DNA of 42,367 nucleotides from a virus (IMGVR_UViG_2563366848_000004); one strand, 5' to 3'. Positions 6,263 through 26,672 are shown, counted from the stretch's first letter. Notes: generated by a model from the sequence alone, not told the origin. Numbers and translations: made by a program.

Positions 6263-6509
6263 GATGTTCTCCAGTTTTTCTGAGTGAACTTCGCTGGTGG
6301 TGCCGCGGCGCTGATCTTCACGGTTGAGCGTTTTAACTCTGCAATTCACCACCGCGAAGCTCACTCTGTGCTTTGCCCTTGTCGCCAGGCTGGCGGAACG
6401 TTTCAAACCTACTGCGCGTTAATCTCACCACCTCATTCCGGTCTTCGTATGCCCCGGACGGCTACTTCGTGGGCTCCATGCCTGGGTGGTTCGTGGTGCG
6501 TCTTGGTGA

Positions 6510-6585
6510 TTGCATATTAAGCCTGAGACTTAAATCATGTCAAGCTCCAGGCGAAATGTGATTGTAAGTTTCAGGCTTAATCGTG
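6510..6585 (-). promoter_or_regulatory. leftward early promoter with operator sites (OL/pL-like)
   Basis: On minus strand TTGACA (6543..6538) - 17 nt - TTAATA (6520..6515); 17-bp site TTAAGCCTGAGACTTAA (6517..6533) overlaps spacer/-10 and is the inverted copy of the OR site; additional half-site TCAGGCTTAA at 6571..6580. Confidence 0.5.
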
Positions 6586-6684
6586 ATGTTCACCGAATTG
6601 CAGGCAAAAAAAATCCCGACGCTAAGGTCGAGATCGGGGACTTCGTGGCTGGGTGTTGGCGGCTGAGATGGTGGGTGAGGGTGT

Positions 6685-6715
6685 AAAAAACCCGGCGCTG
6701 TGGCCGGGTTTTTTC
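6685..6715 (-). terminator. rho-independent terminator (bidirectional-type hairpin)
   Basis: AAAAAA-CCCGGC-gctgtg-GCCGGG-TTTTTT immediately after the stop of the 34-aa ORF. Confidence 0.6.
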
Positions 6716-6838: not shown

Positions 6839-8143
6839 TTATTGACGATTAAAGTAGTTAGAGTTTAGCTCTTTAGGGAAGTAGTGTTTACGATTTACCC
6901 AAACAAATCCATCAACTTTTGATATCACAGCGACATCAACAGGCCCACCGACAGTTTCATAATCATGTGATACTTTTCTTTTGAATGCAGTGATGTTCAC
7001 TAATGATTCGGCCATATACGCAAGATCTGCCTTCCCAAGTGATTGCAACATCGATATCATTTTATTTGTATGGTTATTAACAATATAGCTTTCAAGTTTA
7101 GTATCGTGATCTTGTAAAAGTACGTTTTTGAGTTCCTCAATTTCACTGGAGAAGTGATTGGCTAGTACTCCATTGTTCATTGCAGGGAAAATATTGCTAG
7201 AAACATAATGATTAAGCCGATCAAAAACTTCCTCTGTAAGAGTTCTGTTAAAATTAATGATGTTAGGGTTGCACCCATCAATGAAAGTTACTACTTCATC
7301 TTCTTGAGCAAATGGTATAACAAACCCCATATTGGTTACCTTATTATGGGATTTATCATCAATATTATGGATCATCAATTTGTTTTTAAAAATGCCGTAG
7401 ATATGAAGAGTGCAAATGGAAGGGTAATATTCTTCCTCTCCATAACCTGTTATAACAATCCCTGAATATGTACGACTAGCATGGACTTTGAAAATTAAAC
7501 AAGTGGAATATAATATGACTTTTTCCATAAGCTCTTGCTGTATATTTTCACAGTTATCAAGAACAATAATTGATGAAATGTATGGCGATATTAAATCTTG
7601 TATATATGCTAAAGCATCATTAAACTCTTCTGTATCAAACCCTTCGAAAAAGAGATTATTCCTTAAGATTCCTATCTCTAAATCAAAGGCTTGCTTAACT
7701 ATGTTTTGAAAAATAACATTGTCGAGTTCAACGGCGGGGTTCATTGTTAAATAGTTTACTACATTATTATCATTAATGTATCTCATCAAACCTTTGAGGT
7801 TATCAACAACAAGGTTTATAACGCAAGCCTCTCTCATTTCATTTGTTATAAGGTCTGAGTTACCATTGATGAATTTTACAAAGTCATTAACATATTCTTT
7901 AATGGTAGGGAAACTAGTTTTCCCCAATTGTTTTCTATAGGATTTAATTATAAGTTCCCACGGTGCGCCACCCAGTGTCGCATTATTATAAATCATGATC
8001 CCCACGGGATGGTGTTTAGATAGTTCGAATAGTTTTTCCGCACTATTATTTATTTTTACTAATCTATTATGCTCTGTGGTGACTGCAGAGTCAGCAGCAA
8101 GGGCGATTCCAGTATTATTTATTACAACAATCTCAGCTGTCAT
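6839..8143 (-). CDS. AT-rich 435-aa protein with proteasome-beta/HslV-like Ntn-hydrolase signature; candidate lysogen-expressed defence protein
   Basis: Long ORF in a markedly AT-rich island; start at ATG 8143 (MTAEIVV..., GGGA upstream) preferred over track start 8242, which has no SD; N-terminus T2-x15-D18 ... K30-I and C-terminus DYETVGGPVDVAVISKVDGFVWV resemble Ntn threonine-protease motifs (from memory); same strand as and downstream of the repressor. Confidence 0.75.
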   Translation of the reverse strand: MTAEIVVINNTGIALAADSAVTTEHNRLVKINNSAEKLFELSKHHPVGIMIYNNATLGGAPWELIIKSYRKQLGKTSFPTIKEYVNDFVKFINGNSDLITNEMREACVINLVVDNLKGLMRYINDNNVVNYLTMNPAVELDNVIFQNIVKQAFDLEIGILRNNLFFEGFDTEEFNDALAYIQDLISPYISSIIVLDNCENIQQELMEKVILYSTCLIFKVHASRTYSGIVITGYGEEEYYPSICTLHIYGIFKNKLMIHNIDDKSHNKVTNMGFVIPFAQEDEVVTFIDGCNPNIINFNRTLTEEVFDRLNHYVSSNIFPAMNNGVLANHFSSEIEELKNVLLQDHDTKLESYIVNNHTNKMISMLQSLGKADLAYMAESLVNITAFKRKVSHDYETVGGPVDVAVISKVDGFVWVNRKHYFPKELNSNYFNRQ

Positions 8144-8164
8144 TGCAAAACATCCCGTGTAGTA

Positions 8165-8201
8165 GTGATAAATATTAATTAAATTGATAGTTTTTTTCAA
8201 T
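8165..8201 (-). promoter_or_regulatory. putative sigma70 promoter for the 435-aa gene
   Basis: Minus-strand TTGAAA (8200..8195) - 17 nt - TAATAT (8177..8172), about 30 nt upstream of start codon 8143; AT-rich DNA raises the chance of spurious matches. Confidence 0.35.
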
Positions 8202-8284
8202 CTAACATAAATGGCGGAATCACCCCCCAGTAAAGACATCATTGTCTCATGGGAACTAAAAATTCAGGACAAACCTAAAGCGAT

Positions 8285-8671
8285 TCAGTCCCCCTGCGAG
8301 CGAATCCGCCCCTTCATGTACTTCTCATACAGCTCATCCAGTTCCTTAAGACGTATCGAAAAGATGCGGAGCATGTTCTGTTGCTCTTCTTCTGGCAGCT
8401 GGCGGTAGAGCTCAAGCAGGCGCTGTTCGTCCGGCTTAAGTCCGTCCTTCTCGCCGACATCCTCACCGAGTAACCAAGGCACAGACACGCCAGCTGCGTC
8501 AGCGACAGCGAGAGCTGATTTCTTGCTGATCACGCCTTTTTTAAACCAGCCGTTCACAGACTGCGGGGTTACCCCAGCAACCCTAGCCATATCGGATTTG
8601 GTCATACCGCGCCCGTTCAGCTCTGAAAGGCGTTCGACAAGTATCGGATTAAGTACGGTTTTCTCTTTCAT
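8285..8671 (-). CDS. prophage repressor, HTH XRE family (CI/RacR-like)
   Basis: 128-aa ORF; HTH segment MTKSDMARVAGVTPQSVNGWFKKG; divergent from the Cro-like gene across an operator-rich intergenic region. Confidence 0.8.
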   Translation of the reverse strand: MKEKTVLNPILVERLSELNGRGMTKSDMARVAGVTPQSVNGWFKKGVISKKSALAVADAAGVSVPWLLGEDVGEKDGLKPDEQRLLELYRQLPEEEQQNMLRIFSIRLKELDELYEKYMKGRIRSQGD

Positions 8672-8704
8672 GGTTAGAAGAATAAGCCTTTTTCTTAAAC
8701 TTGA

Positions 8705-8760
8705 AAATTCGCCTCAGGCTTGACAATAAATTAAGTCTCAGGCTTAATTTGATTGTATTC
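8705..8760 (+). promoter_or_regulatory. rightward early promoter with operator sites (OR/pR-like)
   Basis: TTGACA (8720..8725) - about 17 nt - CTTAAT; 17-bp site TTAAGTCTCAGGCTTAA (8731..8747, arms TTAAG/CTTAA) overlapping the -10; second CTCAGGCTT half-site at 8713..8721 overlapping the -35. Confidence 0.55.
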
Positions 8761-8775
8761 AAATCGGAGACAACG

Positions 8776-8994
8776 ATGAACGGGTTAACGAAAGCCATTA
8801 AGTCCGCTGGCACTGCAACAAATCTCGCAACCATGCTGGGCATCAAGCCGATGTCGGTCAGCCGCTGGAAAAACCGGTACCAGGGCGTGGTGCCTGCTGA
8901 TCGGGTCCTTCAAATCTACGCGGCTACCGGCGTAACTCCACACGAGCTGCGCCCTGATCTCTATCCAAACCCAAGTGACGGTTTACCAAAGTAA
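8776..8994 (+). CDS. Cro-like HTH regulator (YdaS family)
   Basis: 73-aa product from internal ATG with GGAGA SD; ...LATMLGIKPMSVSRWKNRYQGVVPADRVLQIYAATGVTPHELRPDLYP matches the YdaS/Cro-type pattern (HTH followed by P..RV..I...TG......LRPDL). Confidence 0.7.
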   Translation: MNGLTKAIKSAGTATNLATMLGIKPMSVSRWKNRYQGVVPADRVLQIYAATGVTPHELRPDLYPNPSDGLPK

Positions 8995-9005
8995 GGAATG
9001 TAACT

Positions 9006-9545
9006 ATGCAATCACTTACGTATCAACAGAGTAACGGGTTCATTTCAGCAGCGCTGATAAATCGCGCTCAACCAAAACCGGGCGTCAGTTGTGGTGCCCT
9101 CCGTGATGCTGTTCGCGCCTGGTCAGCAGTAGCCGGGCAGGACGTTGTAACGGCCCTGATCGTTGAAGAGTGGCACCGGATAGGTGGCGAAGGTATCGAC
9201 TTTCCGGCAGATCACAGCCGTGCCCGGCAGAAGCTGTTCCGCTTCCTGGATAACCATTTCAACAGCGAACGGTACCGCGAGAACGTCCGCCAGCTGACGC
9301 CGGCAATCCTCGCTGTCCTGCCGATTGAATACCGCAATCGTCTGCTACCAGAAGACAACGTAATGGCTCGTCTGGCAAGGCTGGAGAAGGAAACCAGCGA
9401 AGCGAAGATTGCTGTCGCAATGGATGCGCCACGTCATCAGAAGCTGAAAGAGTTGAGCGAGGGGATCGTGGAGATGTATCGCGTTGACCCTGGGTTAACC
9501 GGTCCGTTGATGGAAATGGTGCAGATTATGCTGGGGGCTATATGA
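9006..9545 (+). CDS. hypothetical early regulatory protein (YdaT/CII position)
   Basis: 179-aa ORF directly after the Cro-like gene; assignment by position only. Confidence 0.5.
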   Translation: MQSLTYQQSNGFISAALINRAQPKPGVSCGALRDAVRAWSAVAGQDVVTALIVEEWHRIGGEGIDFPADHSRARQKLFRFLDNHFNSERYRENVRQLTPAILAVLPIEYRNRLLPEDNVMARLARLEKETSEAKIAVAMDAPRHQKLKELSEGIVEMYRVDPGLTGPLMEMVQIMLGAI

Positions 9546-12161: not shown

Positions 12162-12181
12162 TACTGTATAAAAACACAGTA
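12162..12181 (+). promoter_or_regulatory. LexA (SOS) box overlapping the dinI-like promoter
   Basis: TACTGTATAAAAACACAGTA = CTGT-N8-ACAG with TA flanks, overlapping a TATACT -10-like hexamer, about 20 nt upstream of the DinI-family gene. Confidence 0.7.
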
Positions 12182-12199
12182 AATGCAATGGGGGCCATT

Positions 12200-12433
12200 A
12201 TGAAAGTTGAATTAACCATTGATCGCATGAAAGAACTTCCTAAAGGCGCAGTACCAGCACTGGAGAAAGAACTGCTTAAGCGCCTGAATGATCACTATGA
12301 CAATTGCAGGCTCACAATCCGCCGTGCCGGGGCCGATGGGTTAAGTGTTTTTGGTGGTGACAAGGACGATAAAAAGAAAATTGAATCAATCCTCCAGGAT
12401 ACCTGGGAAAGCGCTGACGACTGGTTTTATTAG
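12200..12433 (+). CDS. dinI: DinI-family DNA-damage-inducible protein
   Basis: MKVELTIDRMKELPKGAVPALEKEL...LSVFGGDKDDKKKIESILQDTWESADDWFY parallels E. coli DinI as remembered (MRIEVTIAKT...SVIGATKEDKQRISEILQETWESADDWF); LexA box upstream. Confidence 0.8.
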   Translation: MKVELTIDRMKELPKGAVPALEKELLKRLNDHYDNCRLTIRRAGADGLSVFGGDKDDKKKIESILQDTWESADDWFY

Positions 12434-12550
12434 AATTGCGCTTAAGGCTGGCGCGCATTTTTCAGAATACCGCAATTTGCGTAACCCTCTGATGCTGCTG
12501 CCGACAATCTTTAATCGCGTCTGTTAGTCGCTCGAAGGGAGAACATAAAT

Positions 12551-12799
12551 GTGAGTGATTCAGCTTTGCAAACGTCAGAAGACAACTGGTATGACATTGT
12601 AAGAAGGTCTGACGGCTGCGTGGTGTTTAGCTTTCCTTCATCGGGCAGGCATCTAATTTATCGCGTCAATGGCATGGTTTCTATGCGGCCTTTGCTGGAT
12701 GATGAAGAGGTCTTTACTCCTAATGGTTTTATGCAGTTTATTCACCGTCTCGGCTACCGGGTAACCCCACCTTCTGATAATATGAAATCAACGGTCTGA
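12551..12799 (+). CDS. hypothetical protein (82 aa)
   Basis: GTG start with AGGGAGA SD; no family recognised. Confidence 0.45.
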   Translation: MSDSALQTSEDNWYDIVRRSDGCVVFSFPSSGRHLIYRVNGMVSMRPLLDDEEVFTPNGFMQFIHRLGYRVTPPSDNMKSTV

Positions 12800-16999: not shown

Positions 17000-17613
17000 T
17001 GAACCAACAATTATTTCAAAAGGCGGCTGGTATCAGCGCCGGACTGGCTGTGCGCTGGTTTCAACCAGTAGATGCAGCGATGAAAGAATTCGGCATTACA
17101 GCACCCGCGGATCAGGCCATGTTCATCGCTCAGGTAGGTCATGAGTCTGGTGGCTTTAGCGCTGTAGTTGAAAATTTGAACTACACACCATCTGCGCTGG
17201 TGGCGACGTTCGGAAAGAGGATCACACAGCAGCAGGCTGATGCCCTTGGCAGAACATCCGGACATGCAGCTCGTCAGGATGCTATTGCCAATCTGGTGTA
17301 TAGCAACCGCCTGGGTAACAAAGCGCCCGGCGACGGCTGGAAATATCGCGGCAGAGGGTTAATTCAAATCACTGGCCTCGACAATTATCGCACCTGCGGG
17401 GCTGCTCTGAAGTTAGATTTGGTGACTTCACCTGAACAACTGGAACAGGAACTACAGGCTGCGCGCTCAGCTGCATGGTTCTACACCTCTAAAGGCTGCA
17501 TGATCTACGGTGCCGATATTAATCGTGTTACTCGCATCATTAACGGCGGTCTGAACGGTATTGAGGATCGTAAGGTCCGATACAACAAGGCGCGGGCGGC
17601 GCTGCTGGTATGA
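16999..17613 (+). CDS. endolysin, glycoside hydrolase family 19 (chitinase-like lysozyme)
   Basis: 204 aa; motifs FIAQVGHESGGF ... NRLGNKAPGDGWKYRGRGLIQITG ... RIINGG typical of GH19 phage endolysins. Confidence 0.85.
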   Translation: MNQQLFQKAAGISAGLAVRWFQPVDAAMKEFGITAPADQAMFIAQVGHESGGFSAVVENLNYTPSALVATFGKRITQQQADALGRTSGHAARQDAIANLVYSNRLGNKAPGDGWKYRGRGLIQITGLDNYRTCGAALKLDLVTSPEQLEQELQAARSAAWFYTSKGCMIYGADINRVTRIINGGLNGIEDRKVRYNKARAALLV

Positions 17614-19535: not shown

Positions 19536-19748
19536 CTAGGCTTGTTTTGGTCGAGTAATACGGCCAAGAGCTTTAATTGCAGCGACTTTGACGTTGTGAT
19601 TTAGATCCGAAGATAAATCAAGTAAGCGATTTACATGAGCTGGCGTTGCTGAAGCACTCTCGCCGAGAGCATAAATTGCAGACAATTTTACTTCGTTGTT
19701 AAGGTCGTTGGTTAATTCCAACAACTTAGCGCTAACTGCTGGTGTCAT
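19536..19748 (-). CDS. hypothetical HEAT-like repeat protein (70 aa), antisense between terminase genes
   Basis: Internal ATG preceded by AGGAGG; two repeats of N.VK.AAI.ALG type (NEVKLSAIYALGE / NHNVKVAAIKALGR); comparatively AT-rich. Confidence 0.4.
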   Translation of the reverse strand: MTPAVSAKLLELTNDLNNEVKLSAIYALGESASATPAHVNRLLDLSSDLNHNVKVAAIKALGRITRPKQA

Positions 19749-23547: not shown

Positions 23548-24780
23548 ATGAAATATTTTTTCAATACCCGGCTGGGGGAAACCCGTTATCAGCTGGCTGA
23601 CGGCTCGCTGCTGTGCAAAGACGTGCCGATAGGTCGAACGGGTAAGCAGCTTTACGGCGCTGCCGATCTGCCAAACCTCAAACCCGACAAGCTCGGCGAG
23701 ATAGTCGTAACGCGCTCTCCTGATCAGGTATTCCATCCGGCCACGCTCGCCTCATTCGAAGGGATGAGCATCACGATCCTGCATCCTGAAGATGAAAACG
23801 GGAATGTGCGGCTGGTCAACCCCGAGAACTGGAAAGAGCTTGCGGTCGGGCATCTTCAGAACGTTCGGCGCGGGACTGGTGATCAGTCTGATTTGATGCT
23901 GGCTGACCTTATCGTCAAAGACGAAAGCGCCATTCAGCTGATCGAAGATGGTCTGCGCGAAGTGTCGTGCGGCTATGACGCTGAGTACGAGCAGACCGAA
24001 CCCGGAAAAGCCGAGCAGGTCGATATTACCGGAAACCATGTGGCTCTTGTCCCTAAAGGCAGAGCCGGAAATCGTTGTGCAATTGGAGACAGAGACACAA
24101 TGGCAAATCAAAAGAAAAGCTGGTGGACCCGCATGCGCACGGCCATCAAAACGGGTGACGCTGACACCATGAACGAACTGCTGGACTCTGCGCCAGCGGC
24201 GGTAACGGGTGACGAAGGGGATCTGCCGAGCGGCGTTAACCTCAACATTAACCTTTCACCGCAGCAACCATTGCCGGACAAAAAGCCGGAAATGGGCGGA
24301 GAGCCAACCGGCGACGGCGAGGACGATATCAAAACCTTGCTCAAAGCCCTGCTGGCTAAGCTCGAAGGAACTGCGACGGGCGATAACGACAATAAGCCTG
24401 ACGAAAAAGACAAAAAAGATCCGACCTGCGACGGCGAGGACGGCGAAGAGGAAACCACGATTACCGGTGACTCTGCCTATCGTGCCGAGGTTATCGTCCC
24501 GGGTATCGATCTGAGCCGTAAGGTGAAACCGACCGCGTTCAAACGTGATGTGCTGGCTGCCGCTGACAAAACACTGGTTCGCCAGGTTGTCGGTGATGCG
24601 GATATCCGCAAATTGCCCAAGCAATCGGTAGATATGGCGTTTAACGCCGTGTCAGAGATTGCCAAAGGGCGAAACACCCGCAGCACCACGGGCGATGCAC
24701 AACGTCCAAATATGGGCATGACCAGCATCGCTTCCCTGAACAAACAAAACGCCGACTTCTGGTCTAACCGCAAAGGATAA
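23548..24780 (+). CDS. putative capsid scaffolding/maturation protein
   Basis: 410-aa ORF upstream of the major capsid gene with an acidic low-complexity central region; assignment positional. Confidence 0.5.
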   Translation: MKYFFNTRLGETRYQLADGSLLCKDVPIGRTGKQLYGAADLPNLKPDKLGEIVVTRSPDQVFHPATLASFEGMSITILHPEDENGNVRLVNPENWKELAVGHLQNVRRGTGDQSDLMLADLIVKDESAIQLIEDGLREVSCGYDAEYEQTEPGKAEQVDITGNHVALVPKGRAGNRCAIGDRDTMANQKKSWWTRMRTAIKTGDADTMNELLDSAPAAVTGDEGDLPSGVNLNINLSPQQPLPDKKPEMGGEPTGDGEDDIKTLLKALLAKLEGTATGDNDNKPDEKDKKDPTCDGEDGEEETTITGDSAYRAEVIVPGIDLSRKVKPTAFKRDVLAAADKTLVRQVVGDADIRKLPKQSVDMAFNAVSEIAKGRNTRSTTGDAQRPNMGMTSIASLNKQNADFWSNRKG

Positions 24781-24784
24781 TCCA

Positions 24785-25288
24785 ATGACTGCATATCTGT
24801 ACCGGATGCCTGTTGGCATTGCCGGGGCTATCTCTCGCCCGCAGGACTTAACCGTCGAACCGGTGATCCTTAAATCCGCTAACGCCTTCGCTGCCTATGG
24901 TCTGGCTGGCAAATACGACGCTGACGGCTTTTTCGTGCCGCTGGCGGACGGTGACACCGCCGACAAGGTGAAGGGGATCTACGTTCGTCCGTATCCGACC
25001 ACATCACAGCCAGACATGGTTCGCCAGGTGGGGACGGATAAGAACTTCCCGGGTGACGCCATGAAGCGTGGCTACATGACCGTTAACCTTGGTTCTGACT
25101 TTGATGCCAGCACCATCAAAAAAGGTGACCCGGTATACGTTGTTGTCTCCACTGATGAATCTATTAAAGTGCCGCTGGGTGGTTTCTGCTCTTCAAGCGT
25201 GGAAGGGAAAACTGTCGTACTCGCGAATGCTGAATTTACTGGTGCCGGTGACGCTAACGGTAATGCAGAAATCTCCTGGAAGATTTAA
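24785..25288 (+). CDS. putative head structural/decoration protein
   Basis: 167-aa ORF between scaffold-like and major capsid genes. Confidence 0.45.
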   Translation: MTAYLYRMPVGIAGAISRPQDLTVEPVILKSANAFAAYGLAGKYDADGFFVPLADGDTADKVKGIYVRPYPTTSQPDMVRQVGTDKNFPGDAMKRGYMTVNLGSDFDASTIKKGDPVYVVVSTDESIKVPLGGFCSSSVEGKTVVLANAEFTGAGDANGNAEISWKI

Positions 25289-25299
25289 GGAACAGACAA

Positions 25300-26241
25300 A
25301 TGATTACTTTTGATCAGGCAACCGTAGATAGCTCCGGTGCCTTTCTCATCGGGGAGCTGGAGCGACTCGACCAGACGCTGAACCTGCCTCTGGTGGGGTA
25401 CACCTGGACCCGAGATATTCAACTGCGTGAAGACGTGTCTATCGCAGATGACATTTCCAGCTGGACGAATACCAGCTTCGCCGCTGCGGGTACTGGTGCA
25501 AATCCGAATGGTAAAAACTGGGTAGGCAAAGACTCCACCGCTATTGCTGGCGTGAACGTGGATATCAGCAAAGACGGCAATCCACTGAACCTCTGGGGTA
25601 TGGAACTGGGCTGGACCGTTGTAGAGCTGGCAGCTGCTCAGCAGGTAGGCCGCCCGATTGATACCCAGAAGTACGACGGGATGCAGCTCAAATGGCAGAT
25701 GGACAACGACGAGCAGGTTTACATCGGTGATGACGCACTCGGCCTGAAAGGTCTGGCAAACCTCGTCGGTGTGACGCTGAACAACGCGCCGAAGACCTGG
25801 GCGAACTCAACCAACGACGAGATCCTCGATAGCGTGAACAGCATTCTGTCTAATGCCTGGGCAGCATCCGGTTATTCCATCGTGCCTTCTGATCTGCGCA
25901 TTCCGCCAGAGCAGTATTCACTGCTGGCGAGCCGTAAGGTTTCCGAAGCGGGTAACCAGTCACTGCTGACCTATCTGGCTGTGAACACTATCGCTTTCCA
26001 CCAGAACGGCGTTCCGCTTGAAATCAAAGCGGTCAAATGGCTGAAAGGGCGTGGGGTTGGCGGTAAAGACCGTATGATCGCCTACACCAACGACAAGAAA
26101 TACGTGCGCTATCCGCTGGTGCCGTTGCAGAGCGTTCCTGTCCAGTATCGCGGTCTGTATCAGATTGCGACCTACTACGGCAAGCTCGGTGCGGTTGAGC
26201 CAGTGTACAAAGAAACCCTGTCCTACGTGGACGGTATCTGA
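25300..26241 (+). CDS. major capsid protein (putative)
   Basis: 313-aa ORF with strong codon usage in the head-gene block after scaffold-like and decoration-like genes. Confidence 0.6.
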   Translation: MITFDQATVDSSGAFLIGELERLDQTLNLPLVGYTWTRDIQLREDVSIADDISSWTNTSFAAAGTGANPNGKNWVGKDSTAIAGVNVDISKDGNPLNLWGMELGWTVVELAAAQQVGRPIDTQKYDGMQLKWQMDNDEQVYIGDDALGLKGLANLVGVTLNNAPKTWANSTNDEILDSVNSILSNAWAASGYSIVPSDLRIPPEQYSLLASRKVSEAGNQSLLTYLAVNTIAFHQNGVPLEIKAVKWLKGRGVGGKDRMIAYTNDKKYVRYPLVPLQSVPVQYRGLYQIATYYGKLGAVEPVYKETLSYVDGI

Positions 26242-26282
26242 TAACCAGAACGGCCCCGAAAGGGGCCAGAAGGGAACTGAAA

Positions 26283-26672
26283 ATGGCGAAAGAAAAGCTG
26301 GTTACCATCCATGTTCACACCCCGTTTACGCTGACGCTCGGCGATCAGTCAAAAAGGGAGTTTGGCCGGGGACGGCATAACGTACCGGAAGAGGTCGCGT
26401 CGCACTGGTTCACCCAGGCGCACTCCGAGCTTTCCGAAAGCGTGATTAGCGACACCGATGATCTGCAACCCATTATCGACAGCCTGCAAGCTCAGATTGC
26501 CGACAAAGATAAGCAGATTATCGATAAAGATCAGTTGATTGCCGATCTGCGAGAAGCGCTGCTTAAGCTGCAAGAGCAGAACGACAGCCTGCAAGCGCAG
26601 ATTGCTGCCGCCCAGACTGGCGGTAATGGGGCGAAAGATGCCAAAGAATCAAAGCCTGCCAACAGTAAGTGA
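26283..26672 (+). CDS. hypothetical head-associated protein with C-terminal coiled coil
   Basis: 129-aa ORF; heptad-like [44 protein letters not shown]. Confidence 0.5.

Follow-up and report, generated by a model that had tools for sequence, protein, structure and literature searches.

A probable lambda-style immunity switch built on six related 17-bp dyads in an Escherichia coli Rac/Gifsy-like prophage

The cI repressor mRNA of phage lambda is leaderless. The repressor and cro genes of lambda diverge from a gap of about 100 bp, in which three 17-bp dyads with centers ~23 to 24 bp apart lie over pR and the repressor promoter; a further cluster of three sites is found ~2.2 to 2.4 kb away at pL, the strongest site lies over the early promoter, and rexAB occupies the interval between the repressor gene and OL (textbook knowledge [Ptashne], summarized in PMC10448788). 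Short-repressor prophages have also been described. In Rac, racR diverges from ydaS-ydaT and three inverted repeats (O1 to O3) lie in or next to the gap (PMC9638921; PMC5917428). O1 covers the ydaS promoter and the strongest of the racR transcripts is leaderless (PMC9638921), and YdaS and YdaT have been read as Cro and CII analogues (PMC9638921; PMC5917428). Qin encodes the short, non-cleavable repressor DicA, its Cro-like partner DicC, and a GfoA-like antirepressor, Rem (PMC10448788). Lemire et al. 2011 (PMC3121763) describe Gifsy repressors that are small and non-cleavable and that LexA-controlled antirepressors remove from DNA, and report that GfoR and GfhR recognize different operators; the available sections contain no GfoR or GfhR operator sequence or binding assay, the gel shift there having used the distantly related GtgR, and a literature search on GfoR/GfhR operator sequences turned up nothing beyond that paper. 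Here, the immunity region of a 42,367-nucleotide viral stretch, IMGVR_UViG_2563366848_000004, is analyzed ("the window" denotes this whole stretch). Its repressor/cro gap holds the dyad OR1, which together with five related sites very likely constitutes the OR and OL operators of an immunity switch of the lambda style, carried by an E. coli Rac/Gifsy-like prophage. The layout matches that of lambda nearly point for point, and the proteins are of the Gifsy/Rac/Qin short-repressor kind.

The repressor and cro-like genes of the window are divergent and separated by a gap of 104 bp with a G+C content of 35%. The gap contains three related 17-bp dyads with centers at 8690, 8715, and 8739, approximately two helical turns apart (center-to-center spacings of 24 and 25 bp), along with the elements of a rightward promoter, pR.

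8731-8747, no strand: OR1, TTAAGTCT-C-AGGCTTAA, the consensus dyad, center 8739, between the pR -35 and -10
8707-8723, no strand: OR2, ATTCGCCT-C-AGGCTTGA, a weaker dyad, center 8715, overlapping the pR -35 and abutting the proposed repressor-promoter -35
8682-8698, no strand: OR3, ATAAGCCT-T-TTTCTTAA, center 8690, between the proposed repressor-promoter -35 and -10
8720-8725, plus strand: pR -35, a perfect TTGACA
8743-8750, plus strand: pR -10 candidates, CTTAAT (8743-8748, N17) or TAATTT (8745-8750, N19), both within the right arm of OR1

An earlier note on this DNA had proposed that a 17-bp TTAAG-N7-CTTAA operator spans the spacer and -10 of pR. The dyad, TTAAGTCTCAGGCTTAA, is indeed read straight from the sequence at 8731-8747, as are TTGACA at 8720-8725, the 17-nucleotide (nt) spacer at 8726-8742, and CTTAAT at 8743-8748. 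The 5-bp inverted arms described there are present, but the symmetry is longer, forming a 23-bp near-palindrome around OR1 (AAATTAAGTCT-C-AGGCTTAATTT, 8728-8750) in which 10 of 11 arm positions are complementary. The sequence CTCAGGCTT occurs twice, at 8713-8721, with its final 2 bases inside the pR -35, and at 8737-8745. The first of these had been taken as a second half-site on the -35; the overlap is real, but the sequence is the right half of a full, weaker dyad, OR2 (8707-8723). OR3, over the repressor promoter, and the whole OL cluster (6517-6580) had been missed.

This second cluster lies 2.2 kb to the left of OR, at a leftward promoter, pL, and its three dyads have center-to-center spacings of 23 and 24 bp.

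6517-6533, no strand: OL1, TTAAGTCT-C-AGGCTTAA (minus strand), the exact reverse complement of OR1, center 6525, between the pL -35 and -10
6540-6556, no strand: OL2, TTTCGCCT-G-GAGCTTGA (minus strand), center 6548, overlapping the pL -35, the OR2 homologue
6564-6580, no strand: OL3, TTAAGCCT-G-AAACTTAC (minus strand), center 6572
6514-6543, minus strand: pL, TTGACA (6543-6538), N18, TAATAT (6519-6514), called by a strict scan with 10 of 12 matches

OL1 fills the spacer and -10 of pL, and both copies of the 17-mer lie 4 to 5 nt downstream of a TTGACA. The design of pR is that of pL, except that OR1 lies 1 nt further from the -35. Transcription from pL would run leftward through a conserved leader into kil, ydaE, recE, and recT, and a recE/recT/kil left operon is likewise described for Gifsy (PMC3121763). 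Shuffling the 104-bp gap 20,000 times gave a palindrome of OR1 quality in 26 cases. The exact OR1 17-mer has two occurrences in 42 kb, with ~4e-6 expected for the second copy (reverse complement, 6517-6533). When up to one mismatch was allowed, TTAAG-N7-CTTAA had five matches in the whole window against 0.9 expected, a number reached in none of 100 shuffles. Four of these five fall in two 65-bp clusters (8731-8747 and 8682-8698; 6517-6533 and 6564-6580). The fifth, at 19699, is without the inner bases and probably represents a chance match.

The same immunity region was found in 12 of 5,426 complete E. coli genomes. Megablast against phages returned only a partial match (PHB10), the region being absent from sequenced phages at the DNA level. 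A protein-guided search recovered 23 loci in other Enterobacteriaceae, the phages SW-37, SEN34, mEp237, and PHB10, and one diverged E. coli prophage. These relatives share the C-terminal half of the repressor (...GEKDGLKPDEQRLLELYRQLPEEEQQNMLRIF..LRLKELDELYEKYMKGRI...) and have four N-terminal types, each with its own recognition helix and dyad.

Group A: recognition helix TPQSVNGWFKKG, dyad TTAAGYCT-N-AGRCTTAA
Group B: recognition helix TPQAVNGWFKKG, dyad TAAAYC-N3-GRTTTA
Group C: recognition helix SKQAV(T/S)(G/S)WF(R/K)TG, dyad GTAAA-N7-CTTTAC
Group D: recognition helix S(A/S)QSVNNWFVRG, dyad TAAAC-N5-GTTTA

Group A, the immunity type of the window, comprises six loci, from E. coli (the window), Atlantibacter, Citrobacter werkmanii, and Phytobacter genomes and from the Salmonella phages SW-37 and SEN34. 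When their gaps are aligned, the columns without variation are those of the dyad arms, the -35, and the ribosome-binding site of cro, whereas the spacers and the center base vary. OR1 reads TTAAGTCT-nn-GGCTTAA in the six loci and is invariant at 15 of its 17 positions, with position 10 varying only in the Phytobacter locus (L023); OR2 has the invariant columns ATTCG.C...G.CTTGA. Across the 36 group A sites, the center base is T in 12, A in 9, G in 8, and C in 7, and half-site position 5 is G in 69 of the 72 half-sites. The pL arrangement is kept in five of the six loci as CTTGACA-N4-TTAAGTCT-N-AGGCTTAATAT, with OL3 47 bp beyond.

An unbiased recurrence test was applied to the window and 27 related loci, in which 15-mers of the gap were sought elsewhere in ~8 kb with at most one mismatch. 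Recurrence was seen in 18 of the 28 loci. The recurring element was always an operator dyad, normally the one at the OR1 position, the sole exception being a stray match in L007, and its copy lay 540 to 2,850 bp beyond the repressor gene. Groups B, C, and D carry different dyads at the same three positions as group A, and their repressors have the common C-terminal domain and different helix-turn-helix motifs. A motif that is fixed in place but changes with the DNA-binding domain of the phage repressor indicates an operator rather than a host-factor site or a chance palindrome. A motif scan of related prophages had been named in the earlier note as a check, and the arms are kept in the five group A relatives, with dyads, normally the one at the OR1 position, recurring in relatives. 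The proposal of OR-like operators over pR between the repressor and cro-like genes holds in every sequence-based test, namely the recurrence of the dyad at pL, the conservation of its arms, and the co-variation of the dyads with repressor type.

The same observations bear on the reading that the AT-rich gap holds a palindrome of chance or purely structural origin, such as a hairpin, a terminator, or a host-factor site. The G+C content of 35% and the calculated folding of the 8723-8756 region as single-stranded DNA (-7.8 kcal/mol, z = -5.1) are compatible with such a feature, as are a further three near-palindromes of 23 bp (10 of 11 arm positions) in the window, centered at 17174, 18350, and 41801, making 4 in total against 0.6 expected per window. 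However, an exact second copy stands at pL, the arms are conserved around a free center base across genera, and the motif follows the phage repressor type at a fixed position, unlike a host-factor site. The site is also upstream of the predicted transcript start and would therefore be outside the RNA. On the pL copy, arm conservation, co-variation, and upstream position, the hairpin/terminator and host-factor readings were rejected, and a chance or structural origin is given a negligible probability. In the window phage and in one relative (L003), the palindrome at OR1 is lengthened to 34 bp (ACAAT...ATTGT, 8723-8756); this extension is not conserved in the other group A loci and was treated as incidental.

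The place of the pR -35 is taken by TTGACA, TTGATT, or TTGACT in the group A relatives. The claim that the operator covers the pR -10 is true for either -10 candidate, but which hexamer is used, CTTAAT at N17 or TAATTT at N19, is uncertain, and it is at the exact -10 that the operator/promoter claim is weakest. TAATTT was included because the same arm yields TAATAT at N18 in pL, by analogy. A weak promoter for the repressor gene is proposed on the opposite strand.

8679-8684, minus strand: proposed repressor-promoter (pRM-like) -10, TATTCT, 7 nt before the repressor ATG
8702-8707, minus strand: putative weak repressor-promoter -35, TTTTCA, N17

In 26 of 27 loci, covering all four specificity groups, the repressor ATG is preceded at a distance of 6 to 7 nt by a TAnnnT hexamer. 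No convincing Shine-Dalgarno sequence precedes the ATG in the 27 loci, the three motif matches being inside the operator, 15 to 18 nt upstream. The combination of a -10-like hexamer near the ATG and no Shine-Dalgarno sequence suggests that the repressor mRNA is leaderless, starting at or beside the AUG. A start at ~8671 would place OR3 between the two hexamers of the repressor promoter and OR2 (center about -44) against its -35, which would be the geometry of negative and positive autoregulation in lambda. The Phytobacter locus L023 has a 23-nt insertion between OR3 and the assumed start codon, no -10-like hexamer before the ATG, and no match at the OL2 and OL3 positions; either its start is misassigned or its switch has decayed.

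The genes flanking the gap encode the proteins expected to read it, and are followed on the right by a second regulatory gene and then by lambda-type O and P replication proteins.

8285-8671, minus strand: repressor of the GfoR/GfhR family, 128 aa; HTH_3 domain at the N terminus, small helical domain at the C terminus
8776-8994, plus strand: Cro-like protein, 72 aa, with a YdaS/P22_Cro-like helix-turn-helix; GGAG ribosome-binding site at 8766-8769
9006-9545, plus strand: YdaT/CII-like regulator, second gene of the rightward operon

The length and coordinates given earlier for the repressor (128 aa, 8285-8671, minus strand) are correct, and the length of 73 aa given for the Cro-like protein is corrected to 72 aa. 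HTH_3 alone was above the Pfam cut-off for the repressor, whose DNA-binding domain has the 434/P22-type five-helix HTH_3 fold; in a PDB sequence search, the sole relevant match was the 434 repressor, which was weak (E about 0.07 to 0.1). No Pfam match to Peptidase_S24 or another self-cleavage domain was obtained for the 128-aa protein, which sets it apart from the cleavable lambda CI, P22 C2, and LexA type. The repressor scored 17.4 bits against the NCBIfam equivalog model of RacR (NF049929; cut-off, 200) and 34.4 bits against the subfamily model of DicA (NF007257; cut-off, 101; E = 1.7e-8, residues 13 to 125), the latter being interpreted as distant homology only. The termini of GfoR, GfhR, and GfoA were translated from the gene-specific parts of published recombineering primers, and the comparison with these proteins is limited to the termini. 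The C terminus of the window repressor, EKYMKGRIRSQGD, matches that of GfoR, EKYMKGRIRTRED, whereas that of GfhR, AKYMSRRIKGEGA, resembles those of other relatives. The N terminus of GfoR, MKEKTHQ, is identical in group D relatives, which share the C-terminal domain of the window repressor. By these resemblances, the window repressor is a member of the GfoR/GfhR family with a different predicted DNA-binding specificity. Polyubiquitin matches in the PDB (E down to 5e-10, tandem repeats) were rejected as chance matches in the linker, as they cover only residues 72 to 94 (GEKDGLKPDEQRLL...); this linker segment, GEKDGLKPDEQRLLELYRQLPEE (72 to 94), is a trap for automated annotation.

Several points weigh against a lambda-style switch. 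The left halves of OR2 and OL2 are poor, so the operator call for both rests on position and conservation. The pR -10 is non-canonical, as CTTAAT lacks an A at position 2 and TAATTT requires a 19-nt spacer, and a consensus promoter scan of 8200-9100 did not call the rightward promoter because of that missing A. The repressor promoter has a total score of 8 of 12. The single-sequence AlphaFold model of the repressor, with a predicted local distance difference test (pLDDT) score of 63.7, is too weak for a fold search and was used for domain boundaries; this low-confidence model has a helical N-terminal domain (helix 2 at 25 to 32, recognition helix at 36 to 44), a flexible linker at 61 to 79, and three C-terminal helices. 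Only four specificity groups exist among the relatives, which means few independent events. In addition, inheritance of the repressor, gap, and cro is as a single block, which means that co-variation does not tell which protein reads the dyads. The dyads might for this reason be read by the Cro-like protein only, with the repressor using other sequences. However, no other repeated element is common to the gap and the pL region, and a prophage must silence both pL and pR through its repressor, while the consensus sites lie exactly over both promoters. Reading by the Cro-like protein only is thus considered highly improbable.

The remaining objection comes from Rac, for which O1 to O3 and a leaderless racR have been mapped and YdaS does not repress racR (PMC9638921). 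Cro-like feedback in the window is therefore not guaranteed. In a RacR-like variant, the repressor would bind the dyads and regulate its own gene, but the YdaS-like protein would not act as a Cro on the repressor promoter, and the region would work as a circuit of repressor and antirepressor instead of a bistable switch with two repressors. The rightward genes do belong to the YdaS and YdaT families. In contrast, the helix-turn-helix of the Cro-like protein is also group specific and changes together with the dyads, as expected of a dyad reader, and the protein is near the Pfam P22_Cro cut-off (28.6 bits, just under 30.2; E = 1.2e-6). DicC of Qin also acts like Cro (PMC10448788). This variant is the only serious rival, and it is regarded as rather unlikely.

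Under the favored reading, a lambda-style switch, dimers of the 128-aa repressor would recognize the 17-bp dyads through the half-site TTAAGYCT, with a free center base. The repressor would fill the consensus sites OR1 and OL1 and then the weaker OR2 and OL2, probably cooperatively, and RNA polymerase would be blocked at pR and pL once sites 1 and 2 are filled. At low occupancy, repressor bound at OR2 may stimulate its own weak promoter, which OR3 would shut off at high occupancy. The 72-aa Cro/YdaS-like protein is presumed to act on the same sites and to turn down the repressor promoter after induction. DNA damage would lead to LexA cleavage and derepression of a dinI/GfoA-like operon, and the small antirepressor would then strip the repressor from the DNA.

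This last step is suggested by a module ~1 kb downstream of gene P, which contains a terminator, a LexA box, dinI, an 82-aa open reading frame (ORF), and a DUF1367 gene, with the operon spanning 12162-12799.

12162-12181, plus strand: LexA box, TACTGTATAAAAACACAGTA, covering the dinI-antirepressor operon promoter
12188-12433, plus strand: dinI homologue (Pfam E = 4e-26), start probably the ATG at 12200
12551-12799, plus strand: GfoA-like antirepressor candidate, an 82-aa GTG-start ORF, VSDSALQT...HRLGYRVTPPSDN, matching phrog_340

The ends of the 82-aa ORF product, VSDSALQT and HRLGYRVTPPSDN, compare with primer-derived GfoA termini of MSNSALQK and RRLGYRVTPPSDI. The Gifsy LexA box has the same position and context, and an operon with a LexA box, dinI, a small antirepressor, and DUF1367 is likewise located downstream of the replication genes there (PMC3121763). 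By analogy, induction presumably proceeds via a LexA-controlled antirepressor and not via self-cleavage of the repressor. A second CTGT-N8-ACAG match, at 7538-7553 (CTGTATATTTTCACAG), lies inside a 467-aa ORF and is probably a chance occurrence in AT-rich coding sequence.

Arms of the TTAAG...CTTAA type are also carried by the operators of phage P22, where they are 4 bp apart. The arms in the window are 7 bp apart and have a conserved inner YCT/AGR, so the geometry is not the same and the resemblance is a lead rather than a result. Compared with lambda, the region shares the divergent genes with a ~100-bp gap, the number, length, spacing, and placement of the dyads at both clusters, the location of the strongest site on the early promoter, a repressor mRNA that is apparently leaderless, and an accessory gene (the 467-aa ORF) in the position of rexAB. 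It differs in that the operators have no sequence similarity to those of lambda, the repressor has 128 aa and no LexA-like self-cleaving domain, no N-like gene is present between pL and kil, and induction is presumed to use an antirepressor. Any cooperativity or looping would have to rely on the ~45-aa C-terminal domain. GfoR and GfhR, the repressors of Gifsy-1 and Gifsy-3 (PMC3121763), are alike in being small and in having the same C-terminal tail (EKYMKGRIR...). However, the window repressor has a group A DNA-binding domain and hence other operators, and the host is E. coli rather than Salmonella. The RacR operators are the nearest mapped set but form a different dyad, (T/A)TAGGC-N3-GCCTA(T/A), of 15 bp rather than 17, and Rac O3 overlaps the racR start codon (PMC9638921; PMC5917428). 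With Qin, the window shares the short repressor, Cro-like partner, and GfoA-like antirepressor, as well as weak full-length similarity to DicA; it differs in that its repressor is under the DicA cut-off, its operators are different, and Rem is not known to be LexA controlled (PMC10448788).

The result is a testable operator map, with six sites, three promoters, and a half-site consensus, for an uncharacterized immunity type. The tie of this immunity type to Gifsy antirepressor induction matters for predicting which prophages are co-induced in multi-prophage strains. The design itself is ordinary and leaves the understanding of how such switches work unchanged. The four repressor/operator pairs on one scaffold are useful for studying the evolution of DNA-binding specificity and as orthogonal parts for engineered switches.

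Within the helix-turn-helix, groups A and B differ consistently at two Ser/Ala positions only, K-S-D versus K-A-D at the start of helix 2 and P-Q-S versus P-Q-A in the recognition helix. The two groups also differ in the N-terminal arm and in the preceding helix ("SEL" versus "TEI/EEI," residues 16 to 18). Between their 17-bp dyads, the difference is mainly at positions 1 and 5 of the half-site (TTAAGYCT versus ATAAAYCW). It is conceivable, as a tentative suggestion from these alignments, that groups A and B represent a natural minimal specificity switch and that three-site OL/OR control operates on a ~45-aa C-terminal domain doubling as the antirepressor target. If one or two Ser/Ala changes do retarget the repressor, the family would be a compact model for the evolution of heteroimmunity. 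The Ser/Ala difference is a directly testable candidate for a specificity switch and the most interesting loose end. In some group B repressor genes (L001, 4376-4414; L009), an in-frame upstream start, (M/V)(Y/H)KPNIYND(P/H)-MRKEEP..., spans the operator region and recalls the longer GfhR* form after Gifsy-3 induction described by Lemire et al. 2011 (PMC3121763).

The pL leader, ~90 nt on the minus strand (6420-6507), shows >80% conservation among relatives from all four immunity groups and was found in ~45 phage records, including mEp237, SEN34, SPN3UB, SfV, SfII, ST64B, and phiNP. The consensus fold of the leader comprises a CCACC/GGUGG stem on the outside, one hairpin of the form GGC-N5-GCC, and another hairpin in which four pairs are compensatory, the latter from two haplotypes only. 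A scan of the whole window and the leader against Rfam gave no real family, the snoRNA matches being noise. The position of the leader recalls HK022 putL, but identity with the HK022 put RNA was rejected as there is no sequence similarity to HK022 24000-31000; a structural analogy is neither supported nor excluded. The leader is a candidate cis-acting leader RNA.

Two hairpins resembling intrinsic terminators, at 6685-6715 and 6612-6635, lie between the 467-aa ORF and OL3, one of them apparently bidirectional (AAAAAACCCGGCGCTGTGGCCGGGTTTTTT); they would insulate pL against read-through from the repressor operon. The 467-aa ORF (6839-8242, minus strand) is located between the repressor gene and OL and has a G+C content of 34%, against a window average of 52%. 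It had no family match in PADLOC, NCBIfam, or Pfam and matched only phrog_5990, of unknown function, and the heteroimmune E. coli prophage L001 carries a homologue in the corresponding position. The ORF is a candidate for a cargo or defense gene expressed in the lysogen, and its position between the repressor gene and OL is a known hot spot for prophage cargo genes (PMC7067206).

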